In this document: piece by piece, positions 4,018 through 24,979 of the stretch
How the letters are laid out: every line of letters begins with the position of its first letter
Position numbering within the stretch: the stretch's first letter is position 1
DNA from: Minisyncoccia bacterium
Lineage (GTDB): Bacteria > Patescibacteriota > Minisyncoccia > Phycocordibacterales > UBA9973
Assembly (NCBI GenBank): GCA_044229265.1
Contig: JBGATK010000001.1
Coordinates: 1-33,775 of the forward strand
Direction of reading: 5' to 3'
DNA: 33,775 bases
Notes under the pieces: generated by a model
What the model was told of the DNA's origin: nothing
What the model saw: only the letters and a program-made list of their open reading frames with translations
The model's database searches: none
Program-made: the position numbers and the translations under genes

Positions 4018-4422
4018 TTATATCTTCTGTGAACCTATAAAAATATCACACTGGTCAACACCTACATAAGACTGATATTTCTTTTCTAAGTAATACGCAA
4101 TATCTGGCTCATGGGATATCATTATTACAAAAGAATCTTGGTTCGGTAAGTTGTCTTGAATTTTCTCGTAATCGCAATTCAGAAATCCTTTTTCTTTTAT
4201 AAGACTCTTAACAAGTAAATTCTCCTGCAAGTATGATGCTGTTTCTTTGGCTCTGTTTTGCGGAGAATGCCAAATTTCTATTTCAGAAATATTGTTTTCT
4301 TCCAAAAAAGTAGAGAGCTTTCCAGCAGATAATTCAATTTGCCTTTGACCATTAGGAGTAACGATATTACTGCTATGATCTGCGTGACGCATTACAGCGT
4401 AATTAATTCCTGTATTTTCCAT
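4018..4422 (-). CDS. histidine phosphatase superfamily protein, SixA-like
   Basis: MRHA (RHG-type motif), HSPQNRAKETA, ISHEPDI; small size typical of SixA. Confidence 0.85.
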   Translation of the reverse strand: MENTGINYAVMRHADHSSNIVTPNGQRQIELSAGKLSTFLEENNISEIEIWHSPQNRAKETASYLQENLLVKSLIKEKGFLNCDYEKIQDNLPNQDSFVIMISHEPDIAYYLEKKYQSYVGVDQCDIFIGSQKI

Positions 4423-8956: not shown

Positions 8957-10555
8957 TTAATTCTTTGGGAATGGTTTGCATACCTTTGCTTTCAAAGCCC
9001 AGAAACCGACTTTGAATTTATGCACTACTGTTGATGAGGGTGGAGCAGAAATAATGTTCACTTTCTGTGGCAAAGCTTCGAGTCTGAAACTCTTGTTAAG
9101 CCATTCTTCTCGTGGAGAAAGTTTAACCATTCCAACAGATCCATTTCCTACACTAGATTCTGTACCTGAAATACCTTCACTTATCTTTGTCAGTGCCCAT
9201 ATAAATGGAAAAAACAAAATATTCAAGAACTTTCCTATTTTGCCCCATAATCTATTCCTATTGATTATATATATCAATGTAATAGAAAACACTATGGTAA
9301 ATATTACCAGTACAACAAAAGAGAATAAAAAAGCAAAGACGCTCATCCAAGAAACATTGAAAATAAGATAAGATATTATAGCTACGCTAGATAGTATGCC
9401 AAATATCCTTTTAAAAATTTTAATGTTTTTTTGGTTATTAAATTTCTTTCTATAAGCCGGATCTCTTTTTAAAGTCGGTAGTAAAGAAATAGAAACAAGG
9501 AAAGATATAATTAAAGCTAAGGCTACTCCTCCTACTAACATTAATAAATGGTCGGCAACAGAGAACTCTTTCCCTTCATTCAGCCAATTGGCTTCAAAGA
9601 CAAAACTAAAATACATAAAAATAAACAAAGAATAAAATAGAAGTCCACCTATTGTTATAGGTGTGTATATTCTCTGTTTACCTATAGCTAATACTTTATA
9701 CGGATAGACATCTTCGGGTCTTTTTTCAATATGTAAATCTCTTTTATCATTTGAATCAAGCTCGTCTCCAAAAAATCTTTCCATCATATATTTTAATTCC
9801 CCATGGGAATAAGAAACAACATAGTCAGAAAAATTCTGTTTTAAATTTGTGAAGAAAGATACGGATTGATAACCGAAAAAGAAAACTATGAATCTAATGA
9901 TAAAATTTAGCACATGTAATACTAAAAAGATCACCAGTCTAAATAAAAATCCTATGCTCCACAGAATAGGCTGGATCGTGTGTGACACTATCAGTCTTTT
10001 GCGATAATCACACTGATCGATGGGTTCTAGAGAGAACCATTTGTTGTTCCACTTCCACATTTTCTCTTGCCACGCTGTCTTTGGTTTACTAGCAAAGAAT
10101 TCTTCAGGTACATCCACGATCTCCTCAGCATATGCTACCTGATAAGCCAGCGCATCGTTAGACTCAATTGAGCTTAACCATATATCTTCTTTGTATAGAT
10201 ATGAGGTTTTTCCAATGGCTGATTGTCTTAAATTTTTATCCATTTTGGAAACTAGAATAAAAATTAAGTGGTGCCTGCCTGGCTTGTGGAATTGCAAGTA
10301 GTTAATGGGTTGGAGTTCAAAGAGTGTTCTCTCAGAGTTTGAGGTATCATCTCTTCTTTCTTTTCCACCGTCATCAAGATCACGATACATATTATCAGTT
10401 ATATCAATAACCAAAATATGCGTAGGTTTTGTTTTTGTTACAGATTCATCGAATCCTATTTGGAAAGGGACCGTAGCATCCTCGAGGATTAGTTTACCCC
10501 CATTTAAAACAACCTTAACTGAAGATTGTTCCTTTAATAACAGTTTTTCTTTCAT
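8957..10555 (-). CDS. hypothetical multi-pass membrane protein
   Basis: Long ORF: ~190-aa soluble N-terminus, then several hydrophobic segments; no recognised family motif. Confidence 0.8.
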   Translation of the reverse strand: MKEKLLLKEQSSVKVVLNGGKLILEDATVPFQIGFDESVTKTKPTHILVIDITDNMYRDLDDGGKERRDDTSNSERTLFELQPINYLQFHKPGRHHLIFILVSKMDKNLRQSAIGKTSYLYKEDIWLSSIESNDALAYQVAYAEEIVDVPEEFFASKPKTAWQEKMWKWNNKWFSLEPIDQCDYRKRLIVSHTIQPILWSIGFLFRLVIFLVLHVLNFIIRFIVFFFGYQSVSFFTNLKQNFSDYVVSYSHGELKYMMERFFGDELDSNDKRDLHIEKRPEDVYPYKVLAIGKQRIYTPITIGGLLFYSLFIFMYFSFVFEANWLNEGKEFSVADHLLMLVGGVALALIISFLVSISLLPTLKRDPAYRKKFNNQKNIKIFKRIFGILSSVAIISYLIFNVSWMSVFAFLFSFVVLVIFTIVFSITLIYIINRNRLWGKIGKFLNILFFPFIWALTKISEGISGTESSVGNGSVGMVKLSPREEWLNKSFRLEALPQKVNIISAPPSSTVVHKFKVGFWALKAKVCKPFPKN

Positions 10556-10716: not shown

Positions 10717-11010
10717 CTAATTTTCTCGCCAAGCCATGACTCGACCATTCAAATTATTACCCTTTTCGTCTAGCCACTTAAAGCCAGATCTTGAGTTATT
10801 AATCTTTGCTTCGATAACTCTACCCGTTCCCAAAACAACTAAAAACTTTTTGTTTTTATAGCGTCTTGGAAAAGGTAAAAATTTTCCGTTTACAACACCT
10901 TCTGTGCAACCCGGATTCTTTGCGATTAAATTATAAAGATGTTCAAAATCTCCAGCCTGTTTCAATCCTGAAACTTCAACAATTCTATAAACCATAACTT
11001 TATTTTTCAT
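10717..11010 (-). CDS. hypothetical protein (~97 aa)
   Basis: ORF followed by its own terminator; ATG at 11010 preferred over the track's TTG at 11016. Confidence 0.65.
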   Translation of the reverse strand: MKNKVMVYRIVEVSGLKQAGDFEHLYNLIAKNPGCTEGVVNGKFLPFPRRYKNKKFLVVLGTGRVIEAKINNSRSGFKWLDEKGNNLNGRVMAWREN

Positions 11011-11097
11011 TTTCAAAATTTAAAAAATATTTAAAAATTATTTAAAAACCTTTATTCCAAAAAAGATTCTACAATAAAAACGTGAGAAAGTCCAGTA

Positions 11098-11780: not shown

Positions 11781-13067
11781 TTATCTTCCTAAGATTGCTG
11801 ATAATGTATTTTGTTTTACGACTATTCTAGCTGGAATATAACCTGCAATAATTGTGGTAAATAACAAAATGCCAGCACGAATCATAGTTCCACTTAAAGT
11901 TGCAACTAAAATACCGTCAGAAAATGGGAAATCGATAGGGTTTTCAGCAAAATAAGGCTTGATAAAACCAAAAAGTAAAATCATACCTATGATTACGCCA
12001 AAAGTTGCGTAAAGTAAAGCTTGATACATATAAGAATACAAAATTGCTTTTTTGTTTATACCTATACCTTTTAAAATACCAATATACCTCCTGCGAGTAA
12101 TAGCATTTACGAAGATCACAATAAAAATTGTAATCGAAGCAACCACAAGACCAATACCAGAAATAGCTGAACCTAAAATTCCAAAAGTAGCTTTTATATC
12201 TTTTAAGAATTTTGGAAAAGCCTCTTCAGCTGTCTGCACCCGGGCATATTGCTCTACCCCGCTATCTATTAAAAATTGTTTAGTAATATTAGGATCAGTG
12301 CCAGGCAGAATTTGTATGGCAATAGAACCAGCATTTAAATTAGTTTGGTTTGATAATTTACGAGCTTCACTGGCGAGCATAACAATAGAAAAATCAAAAG
12401 TATCAACTTTAGAACTTAAAATTCCCTTCACAAAATACTCTTTTTGCACATTGCCAGAAGTAAGCCTAACCCTAGAACCTACATTTGTATTTTTCAAACT
12501 TTCAAAACCCGGAGCGTCTATCGGAGTAAATTCATATAAAAAATTCTTACCAATTAAAATACTATCAGCATCATTTTTGTCTAAATATTCTCCGCGTAAA
12601 ACGAATTTTGAAACTCCGGAAAATTTATCTTCTTTTTCAGGATCAATACCTAAAATTGGAGCCCCAGCACCACCTTTTTTCTCACCAGGTTTTACTGTAT
12701 CGCGATAAGTATCTTCGACACGAACCGAGCCACCATACCTAACAGTATGATTTTTATAACCCGGAATAGTTTTAACTATTTTTTCTACTTCTGGAGTTTC
12801 TAAAATTTCACTACGAGTTAAAAAAGGAGAAATAATTACGTCACCAATAGCGTATTTTTTCTGAGCATCTTCAGAGCCTTGAATAAGACCAATTAAAATA
12901 CCAGAAACTACAACTAGGTTAAGAAAAGTAAGAGTCATCACCGCTACGATAAGTGCTGTAGTCCAAATATTTGCCCTTTGCAATTCTCTACGCGCCAAAA
13001 ACCAGCCCACTATGACATTTTGTTTAAAAGAATCTTCAATTTTTAGCCTATCTTTAGAAGCGGACAT
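11781..13067 (-). CDS. ABC transporter permease, MacB/FtsX (type VII) family
   Basis: N-terminal TM, large extracytoplasmic domain, RRRYIGILKGIG coupling motif, three C-terminal TMs, YIPAR; ATG at 13067 preferred. Confidence 0.92.
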   Translation of the reverse strand: MSASKDRLKIEDSFKQNVIVGWFLARRELQRANIWTTALIVAVMTLTFLNLVVVSGILIGLIQGSEDAQKKYAIGDVIISPFLTRSEILETPEVEKIVKTIPGYKNHTVRYGGSVRVEDTYRDTVKPGEKKGGAGAPILGIDPEKEDKFSGVSKFVLRGEYLDKNDADSILIGKNFLYEFTPIDAPGFESLKNTNVGSRVRLTSGNVQKEYFVKGILSSKVDTFDFSIVMLASEARKLSNQTNLNAGSIAIQILPGTDPNITKQFLIDSGVEQYARVQTAEEAFPKFLKDIKATFGILGSAISGIGLVVASITIFIVIFVNAITRRRYIGILKGIGINKKAILYSYMYQALLYATFGVIIGMILLFGFIKPYFAENPIDFPFSDGILVATLSGTMIRAGILLFTTIIAGYIPARIVVKQNTLSAILGR

Positions 13068-13076
13068 TATTTTCAA

Positions 13077-14612
13077 TTATTTTTTCGTGATAAGTGCAAT
13101 TTTTTCGGTAGATTCTAAACCAGAAAGAACTTCTACCATATTACCATCACCTTTTACGCCGAGAGAAATTTCTCTTTCTATATATTTTTTTCTTTTCTCA
13201 TTTGTAATTACATGGGTAAAAGTTTTTCCATCACGGTCAAAAGTAGTTACTTCTGGAATTGAAAGAACATTTTCTTTTGCGGAAATCAAAATAGTAATCT
13301 CTGCATTCATTCCAGGGCGAATATTTATATCTTTATCGAGCAAGGCTACTTTAATTTTATAATTTACCACACCATCATTAGCCTCTGAAGAAATATCAAT
13401 ACTACTGACTGTACCAGTAAACTTTTTATCAGGCAAAGCATCCACTGCTACCTCGACATTTTGATTAAGTGTAATATTTGAAATATTATTTTCATTTATA
13501 TCAGCTTCTACGTATAAATTTTCTACATCTTGTAATGTAATTGCACTTTTGCCAGCTTCGATTTGTTCTCCATATTTTACAGAAACTCTAGTGATAGTAC
13601 CGCTAGCTGGGGCTCTAATCACACCATCTTCATATACAGCATTTGCTTTTTGTAAATTCGCTTCAGCTGACAGAACTTCTGCTTTAGCAAGTTCTATTTC
13701 TGAAGGACGAGCTAGAGCTTGTTTTACAGCAAGCTCAGCTTTTCTTTGTTCTACAAGAGAAAGTGCTGATGAGACAGCAGTATCTTTAGTGCGAATAGCA
13801 GAATTATAAGCATTTAAATTTGCAAGATAATCGCTAGCCTTTTTATTTGGTATAGAAATAATCCAATTTACAGAAGATACAGATCCTGACGGGAAAGTAA
13901 TATAAAGACCAGAATTACCAATAGCTTGTGCTACATCAGTAGAAAGAGGGCTAGACGAGGTAATTAAACCAGAAGTAGAAAAATTTGCACCTCCATTTGA
14001 ATTATATACATTTACATTTATGTCCCCTTCTTTGTTAAGAGTGTAAGTTCCAGAAATAGTTGGAGGAGTTATACTAGATCCATTACTCGCATTTACAGCT
14101 TCTAAATTAGAGTTCAGTAAATCCTTATATGCGTTCTCTACTAAAGTATTTTGTTTTAAAACTTCAGAATTATAAGCTGTTTCTGCATTTTTTAAAGCAA
14201 CCTTAGCTAAATCTATTTCCTCATTACTAGCACCTTCTAAAACTTTTTTAAGTTTTGCCTGTGCGCTAGCGAGCCCCGCCTGCGCTGACAACACATCGGC
14301 ATAAAGTGAGCCGGATTCTAGACTTGCGAGCAATTGACCTTGTCTTACTTTGTCACCCACTGCTACTTTTATATAGCGCACTGTGCCTTGCTTACTAAAA
14401 GAAAGATCTAAATCAGTATTGGAAGTAATTTGGCCAGTAGCTTGGACTGTTTTTTTCAGAGTTCCGAGAGTAGGATTAACAATAGCTACATTTTCATTAC
14501 TATTATTACCGAAAACTTTAAAACCAATAAATATTAAAACTAAAACAAGTGGTATAATAACCCGTTTTTTCTTGAAATACGGTTTAATTTGAGAAAATTG
14601 AAATTTTTGCAT
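13077..14612 (-). CDS. HlyD/MacA-family membrane-fusion (adaptor) subunit
   Basis: N-terminal TM, lipoyl half-motifs VAVGDKVRQGQLLASL and IRAPASGTI, coiled coil, IRPGMNA, VEVLSGL; start at 14612 preferred (TATAAT 6 nt upstream). Confidence 0.92.
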   Translation of the reverse strand: MQKFQFSQIKPYFKKKRVIIPLVLVLIFIGFKVFGNNSNENVAIVNPTLGTLKKTVQATGQITSNTDLDLSFSKQGTVRYIKVAVGDKVRQGQLLASLESGSLYADVLSAQAGLASAQAKLKKVLEGASNEEIDLAKVALKNAETAYNSEVLKQNTLVENAYKDLLNSNLEAVNASNGSSITPPTISGTYTLNKEGDINVNVYNSNGGANFSTSGLITSSSPLSTDVAQAIGNSGLYITFPSGSVSSVNWIISIPNKKASDYLANLNAYNSAIRTKDTAVSSALSLVEQRKAELAVKQALARPSEIELAKAEVLSAEANLQKANAVYEDGVIRAPASGTITRVSVKYGEQIEAGKSAITLQDVENLYVEADINENNISNITLNQNVEVAVDALPDKKFTGTVSSIDISSEANDGVVNYKIKVALLDKDINIRPGMNAEITILISAKENVLSIPEVTTFDRDGKTFTHVITNEKRKKYIEREISLGVKGDGNMVEVLSGLESTEKIALITKK

Positions 14613-14645
14613 ATATGCATTATACACGAAATTATATTTTTAGCG

Positions 14646-14683
14646 AATAAAAAAAACCGGAATTTATTCCGGTTTTTTTTATT
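14646..14683. terminator. strong bidirectional-type terminator closing the leader-family gene array
   Basis: Perfect 18-bp inverted repeat aataaaaaaaaccggaat / attccggttttttttatt. Confidence 0.85.
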
Positions 14684-14692
14684 ACTTATTTA

Positions 14693-14845
14693 CTAGAAAC
14701 CACCAAGATCATCCTCTACTATAAATGAATTAACTGAATTTAGATTTTTAATTGCATAAGCCTGAAAAGCTACAAAAAGTGACACGATTATTATAGAGGC
14801 TACACCTAGGCCAGCTAAAACATTTTGTATATTTACCTTTTTCAT
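14693..14845 (-). CDS. 50-aa protein with the cluster-specific leader (not in the ORF track)
   Basis: Manual translation MKKVNIQNVLAGLGVASIIIVSLFVAFQAYAIKNLNSVNSFIVEDDLGGF*; same leader motif and spacing as the six upstream genes; fills the gap between the previous stop and the terminator. Confidence 0.85.
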   Translation of the reverse strand: MKKVNIQNVLAGLGVASIIIVSLFVAFQAYAIKNLNSVNSFIVEDDLGGF

Positions 14846-14851
14846 ATAGAT

Positions 14852-16021
14852 TTAAGGATTTATCGGAGGAGTATAAGGTTCTCCCTCTTCGTAAACCGGA
14901 ATATATCCTTTTTTAGTATTAGTAAAAGTACAAACAATTTCTTCTCCAGGTCCTGGAATAAAATTTAATTTTGTACCTGTACCTTTTATGTCAGGCTTTG
15001 CTCTATATCCTGCTGGAACTTTAATTTTACAAAGATATTTTGCATTAGTTGTAGAATCTGGAGTTTCTGAAATATCATAAGAAAGTATTTTACCTAAATT
15101 ATCTGTTGTGTAGATAGTAAAAGTATATTGTTTAGGATATTGAGATTTTGGATCAAGATCACCTATACCGTCATCATTAAGACGAATTGTTTGAGTATTG
15201 AACACTTTACCATCACTATTTTTACCGGTTATTTCAAAAGGAAAAACTTTCGGAGATTGTCCTGGAACATAATCTTTTATTATGGTTAATTTCGCAGTAT
15301 TACCTACTGGAGCTGTGATCAAAGTATTAGTAAATTCACATAAAACACTATAAAAAGGTTGAGGATCAAAAGGCCTACCAGTTTCAGGATTATAAAAACC
15401 TTCAGCTCTTTTGTTGTTTATCTCAACATTATTACCATCTCCTTTTATGTATAAAGCTGGATATGGTGGGTTTCCTGAACTTTTATCAAGTTCTGCAAAC
15501 CATTTACCAGTTGCAGGCTCCCAAATACCTCTATGACAAGAATACGAGGTTTTTATATTGCTTAGCTGAGTAATTTCGGTAATGTTAAATGTATCGAAAG
15601 AATCTTCAGTATTTTGCTTCTTTGCATCATCTCTATGCCATTTTACTAAACCCGCTTTATTATCTACAGCGTAAAGTTCACCACCTTTCAAACTAAAATT
15701 AATTACTTTATCTCCTTGAGTTAATTTAAAATCAAAAGCTCCTAAATCATAAGGCGGCACATTTGGATCCACATATTTTTTTACAACACAAACTCTTGTG
15801 CCTACAGGACAAGGGTTTGAAACACCCGCTACACTTTCTTCTGTATCGTATACATTTGAAATTTCATTCTTATCAGAATATAGCGACGAATCACTACCTG
15901 TGCTACCCAAATCGTAATTCGCAAAGTTTGGAATAGCGATCATTAATGCTACTGCAAGTATTGCCATTGTACCAATACCAGCTAAAACATTTTTTACATG
16001 TATTCTCATATTTTCACTCAT
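14852..16021 (-). CDS. exported protein with conserved leader and 2 CnaB/SpaA-like domains
   Basis: Leader KNVLAGIG...NFA; domains VVKKYVDP..ITE..SC..CEFTN and LTIIKDYVP..ISE..LC..CTFTN; Pro-rich tail. Confidence 0.85.
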   Translation of the reverse strand: MSENMRIHVKNVLAGIGTMAILAVALMIAIPNFANYDLGSTGSDSSLYSDKNEISNVYDTEESVAGVSNPCPVGTRVCVVKKYVDPNVPPYDLGAFDFKLTQGDKVINFSLKGGELYAVDNKAGLVKWHRDDAKKQNTEDSFDTFNITEITQLSNIKTSYSCHRGIWEPATGKWFAELDKSSGNPPYPALYIKGDGNNVEINNKRAEGFYNPETGRPFDPQPFYSVLCEFTNTLITAPVGNTAKLTIIKDYVPGQSPKVFPFEITGKNSDGKVFNTQTIRLNDDGIGDLDPKSQYPKQYTFTIYTTDNLGKILSYDISETPDSTTNAKYLCKIKVPAGYRAKPDIKGTGTKLNFIPGPGEEIVCTFTNTKKGYIPVYEEGEPYTPPINP

Positions 16022-16055
16022 ATTTTTTTTAGTTAATAATAATTAAACTTTAAAT

Positions 16056-19000
16056 TTATTGATTTCCTCCACCACCTAAAGTACTTCCTCCTCCAACAAT
16101 CTTTCCAGGATCATTTGGATCACCGTATAGTGGGCAAAGAAGACCATTTGTACAGTTAGTAAAAGTACATTCTACATCATATCCTTTTGGAACCAAGAAA
16201 TTAGGAGTTTCCCTGCTATCAGCAGAAAATGGTTTATAAAGTGGACTTGTAGGTATGTATTTACATGAATAACTACTTACTGGATAAGATGTATTCAAAA
16301 TCTCTTTAATTCTATAAGTTTTTCCTGCTTCTACTGTAATATCTTCTTTGCCTAAGTGAGTAAGTTTTACTATTTTCTTCAAAGAAGAACCTTTAAAGAA
16401 TTGGAAACTAAATAATACTCCGGTAGATGCTGGAACTGTCTTTTTGATTATAGTTACTGTTTGATTAAAGGATTTCTTTACATTAGTTATAGTACAAATT
16501 ACATGATCGCCTTTATTTATTGGAACATTCAATATAGAAGCACTATTAGGAGCACTCTTTACAATAACATTTCCTAATTTACACTCCCAAGATGGAATAT
16601 AATTAATTTCTTGCTCAGTGGTCATTTCTTCTAAGAATGAAAACCGAAGTAATGCTGGATTTACAGTAATAGTATCTTCATTCGGATAAGTAGGATCATT
16701 TTGATTATCGTCTAGAGGTTTTAGATTGTAATTTTCAGTACTGTTTTCTATTTGGAATACTTCTTTATCATCAGTAATATCAGTACCATCGTCTTTCTTT
16801 ACATCTTTTCTAATTGTAATTAAGGTACTAATTATAGTATTCACAAAAGTACAAGTCATAGATTCATTTGTACCTAGAGTTGGTGCAATAAAGCTTGCGC
16901 CAGTTCCACTGGAATTATTACGATCAGTACACTTCCAAGTAGTTTTGTAATTTGATGCTTGTTCTGGAGTCAAATCTTCTGTAAAAGTATATGTTCCACC
17001 AGCTGGTATGGTAATTTCTTTTGTAGAATCATAAGTTTGGTCAGAGTTATCATCTAAGTAAAACTCTCCGATGCCAGTATCATTTAATATTTTGAAAACA
17101 TTAGTATCCTCATCTTTACCTACTACGTCTTTAGCTATAATCAAAGTAGCGACTGCTTTTGTATTCGTAAATGTACAAGTAGCAGTTTGATTATCATCGA
17201 GCTTGATATCGGCATCGTCTGTGCCTTGGCCTTGATCTAAAATATTTCCTGTTTTGTCATCTACACATTTAAAGGAAACAGTGTATCCAGATGGAATAGA
17301 AATTTCAGAGAAAGCATAATTAGTATTTGGAGTAAGTTCAAAAATTTTCTCAGATGGGTCAGGTAAGTTTGCATTATCGTCTAATTTGAATATCTCGCTA
17401 GTATTGTGATTTCTAAAACTAAATACTCCATTATCATCAGTGAGATCTTTTCCATTTGAAGCTACAACATCTTTTTTAATTTTTAAAGCTGATGCAACTT
17501 CTTTATTTGTTAGAGTACACTGAACTCTTTCTCCTGATTTAAGATCTGGAATATTTACTTTAGCCACATTATTAGCTGTAATTGGTTGTCTTGTTGATGG
17601 TGATAAGAAAACACAATAATAACTAGGAATATAAGAATGAAGAGGGTCATTACCAAATTGTTCTATCAAATACTCATTTACTGTTATATCTCCAGGGCGA
17701 ACTTCCCAAGTTTGATTATGGTCATGTAAAATTGGCTTTTCTTCTCCTTTTGTTAAATCTGAAGAAGGACCAACACGCACATGAGCTACATCATCATAAT
17801 CCCATGCATCATCACCTATTAGATCGAATTTTTTGTGTACGAAAACGAGCGCATCTGGTAATTGCTTATTAGTAAATGTACATGTAATACCGTAATTATC
17901 AATATTTAGATTAGTTAATTCTACCTTTAGCCCTTCACCAGCTTTTAATTGAGTGCCATTGTGATCTACACACTCATAAGAAGTCTTGTACTGTAATCCT
18001 TGATCATGAGTTAGATTTTCTGTAATTTTTATACCGTCATTAGTATTAAAATACAATTTCTTTTCAGAATCTGGAGCTTGATTTGGATTACCGTCAAGAT
18101 TAAAAGGATTTATTTGAAGATTAGTTATGAATTCAAAAATATTATTATCATTTTGAATTTCATTGCCATTTTGATCTAAGACAACCTTCTTTACGGTTAC
18201 ATCCAAAAGATGATTTGTAAAAGTACAAATTGCTTTTTGTGATGCTCCCAAAGAAATCCCTATCTTTTTTGCTTCTTTATCATCTTCACTGTATTTATTT
18301 CCAGTTGCATCGTAATAATCGCAATGAATACTTGTTCGGTAAGCACTAGACTGACTATTGGATAGTAATTCTTCTAAATTATATTGAGCAGAAGGTTTAA
18401 TGTAATAAGAAGGATTAGTTTCTTCCCCATTACGCAAGCTAAACTCTGCTAATCTGACTTGATTAACTAAACCGATGCCGAAATTAAAGTGCTCATCATT
18501 GGTATTTGGTGTTGGATCCACTATTTTCTTTACAACAAGCTCTGGGTTCTTTGTGTTAGTAAAAACACAATCTAGGGTTTCTCCAGCATCAAAAGTATAA
18601 TCAAAAACACTTTTATTAGTGATCGTGAAAGATTTTGAAGGAATACTACTTGTGCAAGATATATTAGTAGAATATTTTGGATAAAACTGAGGAGAATCAA
18701 CTCTAGTTCCAGAGTATTCTGAAACATTAAAATGAATTCCGGATATCATTTTTGTAGAATGAGTTTCATTATCTCCTAAGAAAAAATAATCATAACCATT
18801 GGAATGCTCATTGTCATTGTCTGTAAATATATCAAAATCAACTTTATCAGAACTATCAGGTTCGATATTCTTGGTTATATTTAAAGTAGCAGTAGCAAGA
18901 ATATTCGTAAATTCACAAGTCATAGGGTCGTTTTCTTTTAATTCAACACCCAAACCTAAAATATCGTAGGTCTTAGTGCCAAAACCATGAATGTCTCCTT

Positions 19001-19415
19001 CCCCACGGTGATTATCGTAATAACATTCCCAAGAAGTATTATATGTATCTTTTACAGGGGTTTCTTCGATAACATGAAGCCCAGGAGAATATCCTGCATA
19101 TACAGTTCTTGATTTAGGTTCAGGATAATTTGGATCAGCATCTACGCCGTCATCATCTAAAGTTTCTCCGAAAACAAATATATTACCAGTTGATCTAACT
19201 TTATAAACTTTAAAATCAAATTCTATATCTCTGTGATTACTAACATCATGCGTAGACGGAGGTACAACATGTTTTATAATAGTAAGTTGTGCTGTGCCAG
19301 TGCTACTGACACTTGCAAAACTCATAATACTTAGCACACCGAGTAATACGACCACAGCACCTGTTCCGACACCTGCTAAAATATTTTTTATATGTAATCT
19401 CATATCTTTGCTCAT
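16056..19415 (-). CDS. large exported protein with conserved leader and 9 tandem CnaB/SpaA-like domains
   Basis: Leader KNILAGVG...SFA; nine ~110-125-aa repeats ending CEFTN, CVFTN, CTFTN, CTFTN, CTLTN, CTFTN, CTFVN, CTITN, CTFTN; Gly-rich tail. Confidence 0.88.
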   Translation of the reverse strand: MSKDMRLHIKNILAGVGTGAVVVLLGVLSIMSFASVSSTGTAQLTIIKHVVPPSTHDVSNHRDIEFDFKVYKVRSTGNIFVFGETLDDDGVDADPNYPEPKSRTVYAGYSPGLHVIEETPVKDTYNTSWECYYDNHRGEGDIHGFGTKTYDILGLGVELKENDPMTCEFTNILATATLNITKNIEPDSSDKVDFDIFTDNDNEHSNGYDYFFLGDNETHSTKMISGIHFNVSEYSGTRVDSPQFYPKYSTNISCTSSIPSKSFTITNKSVFDYTFDAGETLDCVFTNTKNPELVVKKIVDPTPNTNDEHFNFGIGLVNQVRLAEFSLRNGEETNPSYYIKPSAQYNLEELLSNSQSSAYRTSIHCDYYDATGNKYSEDDKEAKKIGISLGASQKAICTFTNHLLDVTVKKVVLDQNGNEIQNDNNIFEFITNLQINPFNLDGNPNQAPDSEKKLYFNTNDGIKITENLTHDQGLQYKTSYECVDHNGTQLKAGEGLKVELTNLNIDNYGITCTFTNKQLPDALVFVHKKFDLIGDDAWDYDDVAHVRVGPSSDLTKGEEKPILHDHNQTWEVRPGDITVNEYLIEQFGNDPLHSYIPSYYCVFLSPSTRQPITANNVAKVNIPDLKSGERVQCTLTNKEVASALKIKKDVVASNGKDLTDDNGVFSFRNHNTSEIFKLDDNANLPDPSEKIFELTPNTNYAFSEISIPSGYTVSFKCVDDKTGNILDQGQGTDDADIKLDDNQTATCTFTNTKAVATLIIAKDVVGKDEDTNVFKILNDTGIGEFYLDDNSDQTYDSTKEITIPAGGTYTFTEDLTPEQASNYKTTWKCTDRNNSSGTGASFIAPTLGTNESMTCTFVNTIISTLITIRKDVKKDDGTDITDDKEVFQIENSTENYNLKPLDDNQNDPTYPNEDTITVNPALLRFSFLEEMTTEQEINYIPSWECKLGNVIVKSAPNSASILNVPINKGDHVICTITNVKKSFNQTVTIIKKTVPASTGVLFSFQFFKGSSLKKIVKLTHLGKEDITVEAGKTYRIKEILNTSYPVSSYSCKYIPTSPLYKPFSADSRETPNFLVPKGYDVECTFTNCTNGLLCPLYGDPNDPGKIVGGGSTLGGGGNQ

Positions 19416-19531
19416 ATTGTTAAAACCCTAAAAATTAGGATATGTTAGTAATAATTAAAAAAGCTAAAATCTGCACATTTATTATATAACGTTTCAAATC
19501 ATATTCATAGTATTTTGTGGAAAACTATATG

Positions 19532-20935
19532 CTACTGTGATTTTTGGCTACGAGTATTTACGCCAGCTGGACCTGTTTTAAGGGTATTTGTATAAACACA
19601 ATAAACTTCTTCGAATTTCCTTCTATCTAGCTTAATAAATGCTTTTGAGTCGTATATATCTGTACCTCCAGAAGGATCAGTACAACTAACTACTGTATTG
19701 TAGTCCAAATATTTACCTTCAAAAATAGTAAAAACCTCATCTTTTTGAATTGGTCTTGTAATTTCTAGGATTTCGGTATTTTTATCTGTTTTTTTACCTC
19801 CATTTATAAGGCTAAATTGCTCTTTATCTAAAAAATCTTTAAAAAAACGGAAAGATTTCATGCTATCGGGTATAGTATCTTTTTCTACGACTATTCTTCC
19901 GCAGAGTTTATATATCTTATTTACTCCACCATAAGTATTTATATACACAATATCGTTATCTATAGCTATAGAATTCGGTGAATCAAAATATGAATTTCCA
20001 TTTATTTCATAAATACTCCACTTTTCTGTAGAAATATCTAATTTTTGCACTCTATCATTACCTGTATCAGCCACATACACATTCCCAGCGTTATCTATAG
20101 CTATGCCTTCTGGACCATCAAAACCACCTAGCCCATCACCAGCATCACCTGTTTGCCAGGAAAAACCATATTCTTTAATTAATTTACCGTCTAAACCAAA
20201 TTTAAAAACTCGATTCGCATAAGCATCTACTGCGTAGATGTATTCCCCCACAGCTAGTGCTTTTGGACCAGCGAACTTGCCTCCATTGTATTCATTTGTT
20301 TGCCACTGTGCCTTTGGCAGTGTGCCTACTGCTCCAAAAGTATAGATAGTGTTATTATTTTCATCATTTATTATATATAAATTGTTATTTTTATCTAAAG
20401 CTAGAGCGTAAGGATGTGGAAATGGTGTAAAAGAGGTTTTTTGACCATTAAATTCTTGGAAAATAGAGATTGGTGGTAGAGTAAGCTTTTCTTCATTACC
20501 AGCAACGCTAAAACGACGAACTTGATTACGCAAATTCCCCTTAAATTCATGTTGATCTACTACATAAGTATTACCCAGTTTATCTACTGCGACAGAAAGA
20601 GGGTTGTCCAAACCTGAAATATCTTTTTCAAAAGTTCCATCGCTATTATAAACTTTGATTTTATCAAAAAGAGAGCTTACAAAATAAACATTGCCTTTAT
20701 CATCGGTAAAAATGCTAGCGTACTGATTTTCAGGAGAATCTGGAACAAAGGTTTTTACACCATAAACATTAGATTCACAAATTATATCAGTATTAGATGT
20801 ATCACCTTTTAAAACTACAGGTGTAATAGATTCATTAGGATCGTAAGCAAAATTCACCAAACCCAAAGAAACTAAAAAGGCCAATACAACCAAACTCCCA
20901 ACTCCGGCTAAAACATTCTTATAATGTATTTGCAT
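19532..20935 (-). CDS. exported NHL-repeat beta-propeller protein with conserved leader and 1 CnaB/SpaA-like domain
   Basis: Classic NHL repeats FDGPEGIAIDNAGNVYVADTGNDRVQKL and LDNPLSVAVDKLGNTYVVD; C-terminal IVVEKDTIP...CVYTN. Confidence 0.88.
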   Translation of the reverse strand: MQIHYKNVLAGVGSLVVLAFLVSLGLVNFAYDPNESITPVVLKGDTSNTDIICESNVYGVKTFVPDSPENQYASIFTDDKGNVYFVSSLFDKIKVYNSDGTFEKDISGLDNPLSVAVDKLGNTYVVDQHEFKGNLRNQVRRFSVAGNEEKLTLPPISIFQEFNGQKTSFTPFPHPYALALDKNNNLYIINDENNNTIYTFGAVGTLPKAQWQTNEYNGGKFAGPKALAVGEYIYAVDAYANRVFKFGLDGKLIKEYGFSWQTGDAGDGLGGFDGPEGIAIDNAGNVYVADTGNDRVQKLDISTEKWSIYEINGNSYFDSPNSIAIDNDIVYINTYGGVNKIYKLCGRIVVEKDTIPDSMKSFRFFKDFLDKEQFSLINGGKKTDKNTEILEITRPIQKDEVFTIFEGKYLDYNTVVSCTDPSGGTDIYDSKAFIKLDRRKFEEVYCVYTNTLKTGPAGVNTRSQKSQ

Positions 20936-20947
20936 ATGTTTATTATA

Positions 20948-22777
20948 TTACTGCTCATTTTTAGAATCTAGTGTTCCATCTGTGGGCTTTTGAAGTCCGG
21001 TAGTTTTAGTATTAGTAAAAGTACAAATAACTATAAGGCCTCTTTGCATATACACTTGCACTTCTGTGTCTGTAGTTTTTAGTGGATTATTTTCATCTAT
21101 AACTTTTTTGCTTACGAAAGGCTTATAAATGGAATGCCCGTCTACTTCGCACTCTATTTTCGTAATATAACCTTCACTCGAGACATCATGCTCGCGAATA
21201 TTATAAGAACCATCTTCTAATACAAATTCTTTTTCATTACCACCAGAAAGAGAGAAAGTTTCCAAAATACCATTTACATAATCAGTAGGATTCACTAAGT
21301 CAAAATCAAATACACGCCCAGTATTTGGCTCTTCTATCTTTTTAATTATTAATTTCCCTTTATTTGCTTCATTTAAAAATGTACACAAAACTTTACCCTG
21401 ATTTTCTTTATTTAATTTTATTTTTACGATATTTTGATTCGTAATAGTTTGCCCTGAAATATCATCGCAGGAAACGCTGGGATTATATTTAGGGTTAAAT
21501 TCTTCACGCACAGTAAAAGTAGTGTTTTCATCAAATGCTTCCCAGATGTCAAAAGTATTTTTAGCTTTATCTTGTAAAGTAAAATTATTTTTATCTAAAA
21601 AATCTTTACTGAACACAAAAGAATCCAAAGCATTATTGCTGACATTTTTTTCAATAGTAATTTCTCCGCATTTAGTTTTGAATTTATATATATTACCTAT
21701 GCTTGCTGCAAAGAAGTTTCCCTCACTGTCGGAATCAAAATCAAAAAAATGATAACCTGGTGCTTGCCATCCTTTGATTAAAACACCATCAGAATTATAA
21801 ATTCTGAAAACATTTTGCCGAGCAAAACCATTTTTATCTAAATCCTTTGGATTTTTTAATAGCACACCCAAATTCCCATCTTTATCGATATTTACACGAG
21901 CAAAAGTTTGCTCTTTTTCTTCTTCTTTAAATTTTTGGACTACTCCATTTATTACTTCCCTTTTTTCTTGACGCTTGTAAAATGGCGAATCTTCAATCTT
22001 GGTATCAATCATTACTAAATTCTGATCATAACGCAAAATCGTGCTTATATATTCATAGCCAACTAGTATGTCATACTTGCCATTCTTCTTATTGTAATCA
22101 AAAATACCCTTTTCTACATTCATGGGCACATATACAGTACCATCTGCCCCTACTGCCATGTCTGGATAAATATCTAGTTTATGAACAAGATTATTTTGCT
22201 TTTTTAATTTTCCATTTAAATCGTATTTTTTTAATCCAGAATTATCAGAACCGAGGACAAATAAAAATTCACCGTAGCCATCAATAGAACGCGCATAGAT
22301 ATTATCCCAAAACGCTGGAGTAAGAGGTGTTCCAGATAAATCATATCTATATACCTTACTGAGCAACCTGTCGCCAGAAATATATGCTATGCCACGAACT
22401 TCATCTATATACATACCAACCAAATCATAAGATTGTTCTTTATAATTCGTACTATCTACTAAAACAGAATAATTCTTACCATCAGCACTATCAAATTTTT
22501 CTACTTGATTGTGTCCTGTAAAAATCGAATATATTTTGTTATTAGAGTCTATAAAAATACTTGTACCATTTTTTATATCGCTACGAGTTGGAGTTATGTA
22601 ATTTGAATACAAATCATAATTATCATATGGACAAATTGTAGCACTAGAAAATAAATCGGCTTCGTTGAGACCACTCAAATCATCACTGGCTTTAGAAAAA
22701 AGCCCCAAGATGAGAACAAAGGATAATACAGCCAAACCTCCAACCCCCGCTAATATATTTTTATAGTTAATATTCAT
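20948..22777 (-). CDS. exported beta-propeller protein with conserved leader and 2 CnaB/SpaA-like domains
   Basis: Degenerate NHL-like blades (DMAVGADGTVYV, DFDSDSEGNFF); ITIEKNV...CTFLN and LIIKKIEEP...CTFTN. Confidence 0.82.
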   Translation of the reverse strand: MNINYKNILAGVGGLAVLSFVLILGLFSKASDDLSGLNEADLFSSATICPYDNYDLYSNYITPTRSDIKNGTSIFIDSNNKIYSIFTGHNQVEKFDSADGKNYSVLVDSTNYKEQSYDLVGMYIDEVRGIAYISGDRLLSKVYRYDLSGTPLTPAFWDNIYARSIDGYGEFLFVLGSDNSGLKKYDLNGKLKKQNNLVHKLDIYPDMAVGADGTVYVPMNVEKGIFDYNKKNGKYDILVGYEYISTILRYDQNLVMIDTKIEDSPFYKRQEKREVINGVVQKFKEEEKEQTFARVNIDKDGNLGVLLKNPKDLDKNGFARQNVFRIYNSDGVLIKGWQAPGYHFFDFDSDSEGNFFAASIGNIYKFKTKCGEITIEKNVSNNALDSFVFSKDFLDKNNFTLQDKAKNTFDIWEAFDENTTFTVREEFNPKYNPSVSCDDISGQTITNQNIVKIKLNKENQGKVLCTFLNEANKGKLIIKKIEEPNTGRVFDFDLVNPTDYVNGILETFSLSGGNEKEFVLEDGSYNIREHDVSSEGYITKIECEVDGHSIYKPFVSKKVIDENNPLKTTDTEVQVYMQRGLIVICTFTNTKTTGLQKPTDGTLDSKNEQ

Positions 22778-22816
22778 GATTAAATTATATCACTTTTTTA
22801 AAAAAAATTACTTAAT

Positions 22817-24277
22817 TTATAATTCATCATTCTGCAGAGAAATAACAGTATTGGTAAATTCACATATTACTTCTTCGTCATTATCCAAACTTATATTAGC
22901 TTGAGCATTACCAGGAAAAAGAGTTGTATTTTGACTTGGGTCTGTGCATTTCAAAGTCCTCTTATATACTGAATTAGATTTTTCAGAAACAATGTATTTA
23001 CCATTTTCAAGCATCTTGAAAGTAATACTATTTGAGAGAGCAGCACCAGAATCAGACAAAGTGAAAGTAGAAGTTTTATTCTTTTTTATATAAAAACTAT
23101 TTGACTTAGACATTTTGTCGAAATTTTTATTGAAAGTAAAAATAGTATCACTGTTTGGCACAGTATCTTTTTTAATAGTTATTTTCCCACAAAGCCATTT
23201 TGGAGAGTATTTTACGATCTTACTTCCACTAGAAAATAAAATATAAATACTACCATCACTATCTATAGTCATATCAGACACGGATCCAGATTTATTTAAA
23301 GGAATATCTAAAATAAATTTTCCATCTGGACCATATTTTTTAATTTTCGTTGCAGGATTACCGCTTGCAAAATAAACATTTCCCGCACTATCCACCTTTA
23401 GATTAGTAGCATTAGGACCTGTTTTATCTATAAATACTTTTGAAGACTTTTTCACACCATTTACAATTTCAAAAAATTTTACTTGACCTAAAGTTTGGTC
23501 CAGCACTAACAAATTACCTTTTGCATCTGTAGCAAAGCCAGAAATACCATTAAAATTCTTTTCTGAGTTATTCCAATTGTCGCTATTGTCTGAAGGCGAA
23601 TCTGGTAAATTATTTACTTGATTCAAAATACTTATACCCTTACTATTGCTCATGTAAAGATTTGAAATAAAGATAGTGTCAAGCGTAGAATTAGGCCCAG
23701 TAGCTATAAGAGCTGGTACTACAATTTTATCTAAATTAACTTTTTCCTCTTTCTTGCTACCATCCACAAAGAATTTCCATGCTGTACCAGAGCGATTTAG
23801 GTCTGATCTATTATTACCAATATTTTCTGATACATACATATTGCCTATCCTGTCAAAGACAATAGAATCTATCAAATTATCAAATACATGATCCTCACCG
23901 GGGAAATTACCATAAATCTCTGCTCCATCTGCATTAAATCTCCTAATTTTTTTATTATTTACATCGCCAACATAGAAGTTTTTAGATAATTTATCATAAG
24001 TAATAGCAGTTATGCTTCCGAAAGCAAAACCATCTTCTTCTACATATTCTGTTTTTGAAATGCATTCATTTATATCTCTACTTACGGCAATTGAATCTAA
24101 ATCAGATTCTGTGCTTACATTAAATTCATTTGAATTTGTGTCTACAAATGTTGAGTCATTAAGAGTATTTTCTAAACCTAAATCATTTGCACTAGAAAAC
24201 ATACCCACGATAACTACTATCATAAGTACGCACATACCCCCAACTCCTGCTAAAATGTTTTTGAAATTAATATTCAT
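22817..24277 (-). CDS. exported NHL/SMP-30-like beta-propeller protein with conserved leader and 1 CnaB/SpaA-like domain
   Basis: Blades FATDAKGNLLVLD, LKVDSAGNVYFA, MTIDSDGSIYIL; ITIKKDTVP...CEFTN. Confidence 0.85.
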   Translation of the reverse strand: MNINFKNILAGVGGMCVLMIVVIVGMFSSANDLGLENTLNDSTFVDTNSNEFNVSTESDLDSIAVSRDINECISKTEYVEEDGFAFGSITAITYDKLSKNFYVGDVNNKKIRRFNADGAEIYGNFPGEDHVFDNLIDSIVFDRIGNMYVSENIGNNRSDLNRSGTAWKFFVDGSKKEEKVNLDKIVVPALIATGPNSTLDTIFISNLYMSNSKGISILNQVNNLPDSPSDNSDNWNNSEKNFNGISGFATDAKGNLLVLDQTLGQVKFFEIVNGVKKSSKVFIDKTGPNATNLKVDSAGNVYFASGNPATKIKKYGPDGKFILDIPLNKSGSVSDMTIDSDGSIYILFSSGSKIVKYSPKWLCGKITIKKDTVPNSDTIFTFNKNFDKMSKSNSFYIKKNKTSTFTLSDSGAALSNSITFKMLENGKYIVSEKSNSVYKRTLKCTDPSQNTTLFPGNAQANISLDNDEEVICEFTNTVISLQNDEL

Positions 24278-24305
24278 GATTAAATTATATTAATATTTTA
24301 GGAAA

Positions 24306-24902
24306 TTATTTTCTTGTATTAGTAAAAGTGCACACGACTTCTTCAGTAGATCCAATTGTAAATACTGGGGTTTTTCTGCCTGTGCCTGTTATATACCTAA
24401 CACGATTAACTTTTTTCACCGTTGAAGTAAATTTACAAACAGAAGAAGTATTGTATACATCTAAACCTTCTGGGTGATTAATCGTAGAAACTTCTTCTAC
24501 ATAATACGGCTCATTTCTAAAAACAACAGTGGAAGCCTTTGAAATTGGAGGAATATTATAATCATTGTCGTAAAGTACCATTATACCAGCTGTAGTATTA
24601 CCTATATCTGTTCGCTTAATATTCATAACATATTGAGGATTAGGTGGTTCTGGATTTGGTCCTGGTTTATTTTTATCAGGATCTACTTCTACTATTGTAT
24701 AAAGATGAACCAACTCAGAGCCTGCTAAAAGTGAATTCGTTTGATCTATATTATTATTGTTAGTAGTGGATAAATTACTGGATGTAGTATTTCTTGGACC
24801 CAAACTACTAGCATCTGAGAACAAACCAACATATAGAGAAGTTAAAATTATAACAGCACTACCCAAACCTACTAGAATATTTTTAAAATTTATTTTGTGC
24901 AT
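24306..24902 (-). CDS. exported protein with conserved leader, Ser/Thr/Asn linker and 1 degenerate CnaB/SpaA-like domain
   Basis: Leader KNILVGLG...SDA; YYVEE..YNTSSVC..VVCTFTN. Confidence 0.82.
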   Translation of the reverse strand: MHKINFKNILVGLGSAVIILTSLYVGLFSDASSLGPRNTTSSNLSTTNNNNIDQTNSLLAGSELVHLYTIVEVDPDKNKPGPNPEPPNPQYVMNIKRTDIGNTTAGIMVLYDNDYNIPPISKASTVVFRNEPYYVEEVSTINHPEGLDVYNTSSVCKFTSTVKKVNRVRYITGTGRKTPVFTIGSTEEVVCTFTNTRK

Positions 24903-24949
24903 TAAGATTATATTATTTTTTAATATTAATATTATACATTAGTAAAATT

Positions 24950-24979
24950 CAAAAAGCACACCTTTCGGTGTGCTTTTTG
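24950..24979 (-). terminator. intrinsic terminator after fusA
   Basis: Minus strand CAAAAAGCACACC-GAAA-GGTGTGCTTTTTG, perfect 13-bp stem. Confidence 0.9.

Follow-up and report, generated by a model that had tools for sequence, protein, structure and literature searches.

The window, the whole stretch of 33,775 nucleotides considered here, belongs to a 640-kb Minisyncoccia genome that is 97% complete. After the fusA terminator it carries seven consecutive minus-strand genes, encoding proteins of 198, 486, 609, 467, 1119, 389, and 50 amino acids (aa), and the smallest is the last of these seven adjacent genes, all of which share a leader (Table 1). The large proteins of the array contain SpaA-type prealbumin-like domains (PF24514, PF20674) and NHL-type propellers. 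Domains in the array open with x-L-x-I-x-K and close with C-x-FTNT, a layout that we take to resemble the Lys-Asn isopeptide stalk domains of the SpaA/CnaB type. None of the six large proteins has an LPXTG-like end, and no sortase match was found in the 97% complete genome. The 50-aa protein had no Pfam match and thus lacks the SpaA-type or NHL body of its paralogues.

Table 1. Coordinates of the array, the parts of the small gene, and adjoining features (window numbering).
Feature	Position	Strand	Remarks
HlyD/MacA-type adaptor gene	13077..14612	minus	core genome, outside the island; likely ATG at 14612
Island	14646..24979	.	approximate extent, ~10.3 kb from fusA terminator to HlyD-type gene; GC 0.30-0.35
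Hairpin terminator closing the array	14646..14683	minus	17 pairs and a T-run
Second in-frame stop, TAA	14690-14692	minus	directly past TAG
Small gene	14693..14845	minus	50 codons and TAG stop (14693-14695); ATG start; exact protein on 3 public contigs
C-terminal unit, residues 42-50 (IVEDDLGGF)	14696..14722	minus	conserved in P0001-P0003
Variable linker, residues 32-41 (IKNLNSVNSF)	14723..14752	minus	from comparison with P0002 and P0003
Leader, residues 1-31 (MKK, NVLAGLG, hydrophobic core, QAYA)	14753..14845	minus	from alignment with six paralogues
389-aa paralogue	14852..16021	minus	same leader; two domains ending C.FTNT
Five leader-bearing genes (1119, 467, 609, 486, 198 aa)	16056..24902	minus	SpaA-type prealbumin-like domains and/or NHL propellers
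TATAAT-ATG sites	24903-24912, 24278-24289, 22778-22789, 20936-20947, 14613-14624		perfect boxes in the window

The array lies in an island whose GC content (0.30 to 0.35) is lower than that of fusA (0.40 to 0.41). In genomes G027 and G002, whose elongation factor G (EF-G) is 91% identical to that of the window, the HlyD-type gene comes directly after fusA, across a short spacer with a terminator hairpin, and the stretch of about 10.3 kb is therefore an insertion. Its content consists of the seven leader genes only, with no regulator, protease, or transporter. A relative of the 389-aa protein was present in 1 of 150 other genus genomes, namely G146, an unpublished genome of a second species of the genus. 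On its contig G146:C2 (locus L177), the gene directly downstream of fusA encodes a protein of over 527 aa with the leader, and the contig ends inside this gene. In this one unpublished genome, the leader gene is thus located at the same insertion site as the array in the window. The matches of some contigs from other runs break off at 14650-14683, at the edge of the island, which weakly hints at strains that lack it.

Downstream of the array follow HlyD/MacA-type, FtsX/MacB-type, and ABC ATPase genes. Of 40 other genus genomes, 31 also contained an HlyD-type match. A functional link between the small open reading frame (ORF) and this candidate exporter was considered and rejected: the trio adjoins fusA in G027 and G002, which have no island, and a terminator separates it from the array. 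The listed GTG start of the HlyD-type gene (13077-14627) falls inside the gene's own TATAAT box, while the ATG at 14612 gives MQKFQF..., as in the G027 orthologue. Between the ABC genes and tuf, a 532-aa multi-pass membrane protein (8957-10555) and a 99-aa protein with no Pfam match (10717-11016) are encoded, and the fusA-tuf stretch seems to collect accessory genes. A 134-aa ORF without a Pfam match (4018-4422) was also seen in the S10 ribosomal-protein operon, where it separates the S19 gene from the L2 gene.

The last gene of the array encodes the 50-aa protein MKKVNIQNVLAGLGVASIIIVSLFVAFQAYAIKNLNSVNSFIVEDDLGGF, hereafter P0001. Six nucleotides (14846-14851) separate its start from the TAA stop of the 389-aa gene, which ends at 14852, and about 10 nt lie between its two stops and the hairpin. 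The sequence-only reading, an earlier interpretation made from the DNA letters alone, had described the 6-nt gap, the TAG TAA double stop, and the position just before the terminator, all of which are seen in the sequence. Folded as RNA on the gene's strand, the hairpin reaches −20.9 kcal/mol (z = −6.57), a stability that none of 200 shuffles matched. The frame is shorter than the 60-aa default cutoff of the ORF listing, and at the local base composition, 50 stop-free codons have a per-frame chance of about 0.024; the small ORF is credible because of its homology, not its length. Its protein had already been called as a gene on 3 contigs in the public protein collection. The locus is also present in a second strain: a wastewater run of a different study includes a contig of 6,072 nt that spans 13000-15349 with 97 differences and no gaps, at about 96% identity. 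We consider it very probable that the small ORF is a real gene.

The seven array genes share the leader consensus KN[IV]LAG[VIL]G ... S/N/A-x-A, and their alignment has six invariant positions (M1, N8, L10, G12, G14, and A31). In a whole-genome search, the leader of the small ORF matched those of the 389-aa and 198-aa proteins with E values of 2.6e-4 and 2.7e-4, respectively, confirming the earlier proposal that the leader is common to the family. A leader profile matched the small ORF at an E value of 1.3e-17, a figure obtained with a profile that itself includes the small-ORF sequence. When the whole 640,461-bp genome was scanned in six frames with a relaxed leader pattern, the only matches were the seven array genes. 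Across 212 genus genomes, the leader profile gave matches at E ≤ 0.01 in seven (G000, G146, G147, G118, G219, G009, and G024). Those in G000 and the unpublished G146 are believable (2 of 212), and among the other five, the two that were inspected, in G147 and G118, are unrelated.

The small-ORF leader has sequence features that fit a Sec/signal peptidase I (SPI) signal: K2K3, a hydrophobic core of 19 residues (V9-F27; 19-residue Kyte-Doolittle maximum of the mean hydropathy, 2.65), and AYA. The clean AxA site that the sequence-only reading had pointed out holds up as well, the −3/−1 pattern being AYA in the small ORF and S/N-x-A in the other six leaders, and the genome has one signal peptidase I gene. 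Hydrophobicity and core length of the leader are also sufficient for a membrane anchor. Two other classes of signal were rejected. Type IV pilin-like (class III) signals have a short basic leader ending in Gly, followed by a hydrophobic stretch with Glu at +5; G12 of the small ORF is followed by LGVASIII, the hydrophobic stretch contains no Glu, and the other six leaders do not differ in this respect. A double-glycine (C39) leader, read from the ...LGG/F end, was judged against the double-glycine leader consensus and dismissed in view of the Asp at −4 and of the many units that end in DPF, APW, or VPW, not GGF.

We then examined the tail of the protein. Its 19 residues include one basic and three acidic residues. 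When proteins of 27 to 88 aa in a 5.8-billion-cluster protein collection were searched for small relatives, three candidates were scored: P0001 itself, P0002 (50 aa, 88% identical, with the C-terminal end IVEDDLRGF), and P0003 (53 aa, 75% identical, ending in IVEDDLAPW). The length conservation that the earlier reading had looked for in relatives was thus found, and the layout is the same in all three. Compared with P0001, the C-terminal unit is identical at 8 of 9 positions in P0002 and at 6 of 9 in P0003, with IVEDDL invariant and the last three residues variable. Linker identity amounts to 9/10 in P0002 and to 7/13 aligned positions in P0003, which has a 3-residue insertion, while the leader is identical at 27 of 31 positions in each comparison and is the best-conserved segment of the small proteins.

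Longer relatives exist. Of 37 longer candidates, the sole match was P0004 (196 aa), in which a related leader precedes a repeated tail motif. A phmmer search with P0004 against 1.84 billion representatives returned 5 matches at E ≤ 0.001 (P0005 to P0009). P0005 (185 aa; E value of 1.7e-53 to P0004) again has a related leader and eight units; P0006 (474 aa) has the leader and a degenerate unit, IFEDGLGF, followed by NHL and SpaA domains; P0007 to P0009 proved to be unrelated repeat proteins and were discarded. A profile built from P0004 and P0005 recovered those two alone. The two proteins are identical at 26 of 36 leader positions and at 90 of 163 positions in the remainder, and their units recur with an irregular period of 18 to 26 residues. 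Because their eight units and spacers align one to one, the eight-unit array must be old.

The unit has the consensus IVEDD[LIV]x[GP][FW] and occurs in 19 copies in P0001 to P0005 (1 + 1 + 1 + 8 + 8). All five proteins terminate exactly on the F or W of the unit, and the tail is therefore a conserved unit. An aromatic residue directly precedes 11 of the 19 copies, including that of P0001. What characterizes an IVEDD-unit protein, namely a related leader, at least one unit, and an end on the unit, is found in the small ORF. The family is tiny: in a collection of about 15 billion proteins, it numbers five. A profile of the 19 units matched only the small ORF in the window's genome; since the profile contains the small ORF, this result shows merely that the genome has no second copy.

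The searches for further members gave no relatives in the collections covered. P0001 had five matches outside G000 among 61 related genomes, all unrelated (FtsW-like, MacB-like, and others); P0004 found no unit-bearing gene outside G000 in 212 genus genomes; and P0005 gave three matches, all unrelated, in 401 order genomes and none in 401 family genomes. Locus L146 (1219-1941, genome G374) encodes a 240-aa protein of 11-residue repeats, TKDDLKxFA(T), which are of a coiled-coil KDDLKxF type and unrelated to the unit. Two scans of metagenome contigs produced 588 and 594 pattern matches, 0 of which were confirmed as relatives. With a degenerate DNA pattern for IVEDDxGGF, genome contigs yielded 119 loci with one match each and no leader-bearing small ORF; we regard these loci as chance noise, most of them lying in high-GC genomes (for example, IVEDDGGGF of a histidine kinase). 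Viral contigs yielded one locus (L169 6609-9641, an IMG/VR contig), which encodes a 1010-aa phage protein judged unrelated. That protein, probably a fiber, consists of long contiguous decapeptide repeats, PVIIVEDDIT / PTEIPIVDDL, and its likeness to the unit is superficial. Pfam, NCBIfam, Protein Data Bank sequence, and ESM Atlas searches returned no usable match for the small or the multiunit proteins. The literature searches likewise found no relevant paper for "IVEDDL" in full text and, for small secreted or repeat peptides in Patescibacteria/CPR, no description of such a family.

The sequence-only reading had reasoned that a gene made up almost entirely of a leader implies that the leader is the functional part. 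This view is not sustained by the relatives, in which the nonapeptide tail is kept (P0002 and P0003) or repeated eight times (P0004 and P0005), and it is probably the unit, not the leader alone, that is functional in the small protein. The leader may nevertheless have a role beyond export targeting, given that it is the best-conserved segment and has anchor-grade hydrophobicity. One alternative builds on this: the leader would stay uncleaved and serve as an association helix of the seven island proteins, and the small protein would be a membrane-anchored subunit, a scaffold or adaptor with a 19-residue tail. It overlaps with our preferred explanation in that the unit would be displayed, and differs as to which part is functional. 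It draws on the high conservation of the leader, both in the small proteins (27/31) and in P0004 and P0005 (26/36, compared with 90/163 elsewhere), on the polar Asn and two Gly residues that are invariant across all seven leaders, on a hydrophobic core whose length and hydropathy are of transmembrane-helix grade, and on the restriction of the leader to the island, with believable matches in 2 of 212 genus genomes. An uncleaved leader would also explain how proteins without LPXTG-like ends are retained on the cell in a genome without a sortase. Against this, Ala at −1 is invariant and the −3 residue is small or neutral in all seven leaders, a pattern typical of signal peptidase I sites, and the genome encodes this enzyme. 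Conserved motifs in signal peptides that are cleaved also have a precedent in the YSIRK/GXXS type, as described in PMC5962339. By itself, moreover, an anchored subunit gives no reason for the unit to be kept and multiplied. We regard this alternative as unlikely, although it is the one that we take most seriously.

The other view offered in the sequence-only reading was that of a truncated relic. In its present form, this explanation holds that the small ORF is a functionless leftover, either the 5′ end of a P0006-like gene that lost its body or a collapsed multiunit gene, which is still kept because it is young. P0006, with its leader and degenerate unit ahead of NHL and SpaA domains, shows what such a parent might look like; the small gene is last in the array, at the edge of the island; neither a promoter-like box nor a Shine-Dalgarno motif precedes it; and its close relatives are merely 75 to 88% identical, with an indel in the linker. 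However, start, frame, double stop, and terminator are all intact, and the three versions hold a length of 50 to 53 aa, each ending on the unit. IVEDDL is invariant while the linker and the last three residues of the unit vary. The roughly 10 nt between the stops and the hairpin leave no room for, and no trace of, a lost body. When the tail was aligned with the six large paralogues, the best local scores lay inside the range of 200 shuffles, and because the tail resembles no part of these proteins, a truncated relic is unlikely. The idea that relatives would have a longer gene at this position fared unevenly. No longer SpaA-type gene is found there, the nearest species examined lacking the whole array; longer relatives do exist (P0004 and P0005), but their extra length comes solely from the repeated tail unit. 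Taken alone, the conservation of the 150-nt frame in three close strains is modest evidence. In all, we consider a functionless leftover improbable. Given P0006, the gene could have originated by truncation (or P0006 by the reverse, a fusion), which is a question separate from its present function.

The multiunit proteins bring up another alternative, in which units and spacers stack as structural repeats of a beta-rich, possibly calcium-binding, curli-type fiber, and the one-unit gene provides a cap or nucleator. The eight imperfect repeats have a roughly constant period, their spacers are conserved between P0004 and P0005, and a beta-strand-like IVE is followed by acidic and Gly residues. 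The period is nevertheless irregular, the window's genome has no multiunit gene that could be capped (the unit profile matches the small ORF only), and Protein Data Bank and Pfam searches were empty. An AlphaFold2 model of P0005 showed no fold, with a mean pLDDT of 40.8, which is weak evidence against structural repeats, as the alignment had 2 rows; this low value may weakly fit a linear precursor. For P0006, predicted from a 4-row alignment, the mean pLDDT was 57.3, and the blocks covering residues 31 to 60 stood at 28, 23, and 34. The unit copy in cis was not docked in this model, an outcome that says little with so shallow an alignment. We think it very improbable that the units are structural repeats.

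We also looked at how the array might be expressed. In four array genes, TATAAT ends 4 nt (198-aa gene) or 6 nt (486-, 609-, and 467-aa genes) before the ATG, and in the HlyD-type gene it ends 6 nt upstream of the likely start. Upstream of the array genes, a Shine-Dalgarno-like motif is absent in every case, and the small ORF has no promoter-like box of its own. Genome-wide, TATAAT followed after 6 nt by ATG occurs 68 times, and 56 of these sites open frames of at least 80 codons, compared with 18% for all ATGs, which suggests that leaderless mRNAs may be widespread in this genome. RNA runs X19 and X20 gave contigs that map to the HlyD-type gene and to sections of the array, among them 15755-16140, 17825-18108, and 18995-19146. 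No contig from either run covers 14693-14845, with the qualification that contigs cannot prove absence and that DNA carry-over is possible.

Starting from the observed gene, family, conserved unit, and island context, we infer from sequence features that the small protein would be exported, cleaved, and used as a ligand. In the combined reading that we prefer, and to which we assign a probability of roughly 0.55, the small ORF is a real gene for an exported or displayed pre-peptide whose functional unit acts as a ligand. After read-through transcription, it would be translated by coupling to the 389-aa gene, as suggested by the 6-nt gap and the lack of both a promoter-like box and a Shine-Dalgarno motif. 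The Sec-type leader, common to six neighboring surface-protein genes, would carry the pre-peptide into or across the membrane. Its payload would be a nonapeptide, IVEDD[LIV]x[GP][FW], placed at the C-terminus behind a short linker of variable sequence, with the small gene as the single-unit form in a family in which other known members have eight units per chain.

Cleavage by signal peptidase I after AYA31 would yield a free acidic peptide of 19 residues. Release of a free peptide is a tentative part of this scheme, which we put at somewhat below even odds; with an uncleaved leader, the tail would instead be displayed on a membrane anchor. Since 11 of the 19 unit copies follow an aromatic residue and each unit also ends in one, we propose that the 19-mer might be trimmed further to the nonapeptide by cuts after aromatic residues, and a protease with this preference would free the nonapeptide from single- and multiunit precursors alike. 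The genome yielded no subtilisin-type protease that could do such trimming. Outside the cell, the unit would be a short linear ligand, either a diffusible signal or a docking tag, and the targets of a docking tag would be the co-inherited NHL-propeller/SpaA-type proteins or a target on a host cell. The island has no regulator, protease, or transporter, and a partner, if co-encoded, must therefore be one of the six surface proteins; NHL propellers would be plausible candidates for binding a peptide.

CPR/Patescibacteria are mostly uncultivated, and little is known of how they recognize hosts or one another. A short, chemically simple, synthesizable peptide in an adhesin island would offer a direct experimental handle: the nonapeptide could serve to fish for partners among the six co-encoded proteins, and the organism has been found in bioreactor and wastewater communities, where the peptide could be sought by mass spectrometry. 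Six runs contain at least half of the words sampled from the locus. A more far-reaching possibility, speculative and in our view unlikely, is that the island is the recognition kit of an episymbiotic CPR bacterium, made up of six adhesin-like proteins and the exported nonapeptide IVEDDLxGF as a signal or docking tag. If true, the nonapeptide would be either the first such signal to be described in Patescibacteria or a tag read by the co-encoded NHL propellers or by a host-cell protein, and its dose would depend on how many units a precursor has (1 in this lineage, 8 in another). More generally, the gene that tells most about a locus can be a frame of fewer than 60 codons at the end of an operon, and a "leader-only" appearance can conceal a conserved short motif.

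Finally, we compared the small protein with known systems. The C-terminal tip of bacterial SSB is an acidic stretch ending in I-P-F, and an SSB-like ORF in locus L019 has such a tip as well. The unit shares with it an acidic run, a hydrophobic residue, Pro or Gly, and a C-terminal aromatic residue (as in the P0004 units ...DDLDPF and ...DDIEPF), but has one extra residue between the hydrophobic residue and Pro/Gly. SSB partners are cytoplasmic, whereas the small protein has an export leader, and the resemblance may be due to chance.

In multicore RiPP precursors, such as those of cyanobactins and multicore graspetides, a leader precedes repeated short peptides with spacers. P0004 and P0005 likewise combine a leader with repeated, conserved short peptides and spacers. 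The island, in contrast, encodes no modifying enzyme, dedicated protease, or peptidase-ABC exporter, the leader is Sec-like, and the adjacent HlyD/MacB/ABC genes are core genes behind a terminator.

A signal-peptide motif conserved across a set of surface proteins recalls the YSIRK/GXXS motif, and in both cases this suggests a role of the leader beyond plain export. According to PMC5962339, that motif is conserved in signal peptides of staphylococcal and streptococcal surface proteins, which are still cleaved. The motif of the island is KN[IV]LAG.G, however; its leaders contain no YSIRK/GXXS and gave no NCBIfam signal-peptide match. The array proteins also lack LPXTG, the genome has no sortase match, and the leader is confined to the island, in 2 of 212 genomes.

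The closest likeness in layout is to the RRNPPA propeptides (Rap/NprR/PlcR/AimR-type; Firmicutes and phages). PMC9765709 describes propeptides that are exported via Sec/SPI and carry the mature peptide at the C-terminus, some with up to six copies, and propeptides with several pheromone copies are likewise reported in 10.1101/2024.08.13.607696. Similarly, the small ORF encodes about 50 aa or less, with what appear to be N-terminal Sec/SPI-type signal features and a conserved short peptide at the extreme C-terminus, and multicopy forms occur in both groups, with up to six copies there and eight here. An Opp-type binding protein is also encoded in the genome of the small ORF (SBP_bac_5, OppA-type, at C4:20085-21194), for which a nutritional role is equally likely. 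On the other hand, no TPR receptor gene lies beside the small ORF, its neighbors being SpaA-type and HlyD-type genes, and genome searches gave 0 matches for RNPP_C and sub-threshold matches only for TPR_12. As no receptor gene was found, we do not count the small ORF as an RRNPPA member. The genome encodes several histidine-kinase-type ATPase domains, and nothing links them or the OppA-type gene to the peptide. Further differences are that the organism belongs to the Patescibacteria (CPR) and is not a Firmicute, that the leader is common to six large surface proteins, that the unit is a strongly acidic nonapeptide, and that the small protein had no sequence similarity to any described propeptide in the searches made. 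On balance, the small ORF would best be read as encoding a propeptide of the Sec-exported type, with a C-terminal unit that occurs in single- and multicopy forms, in an unusual genomic context.
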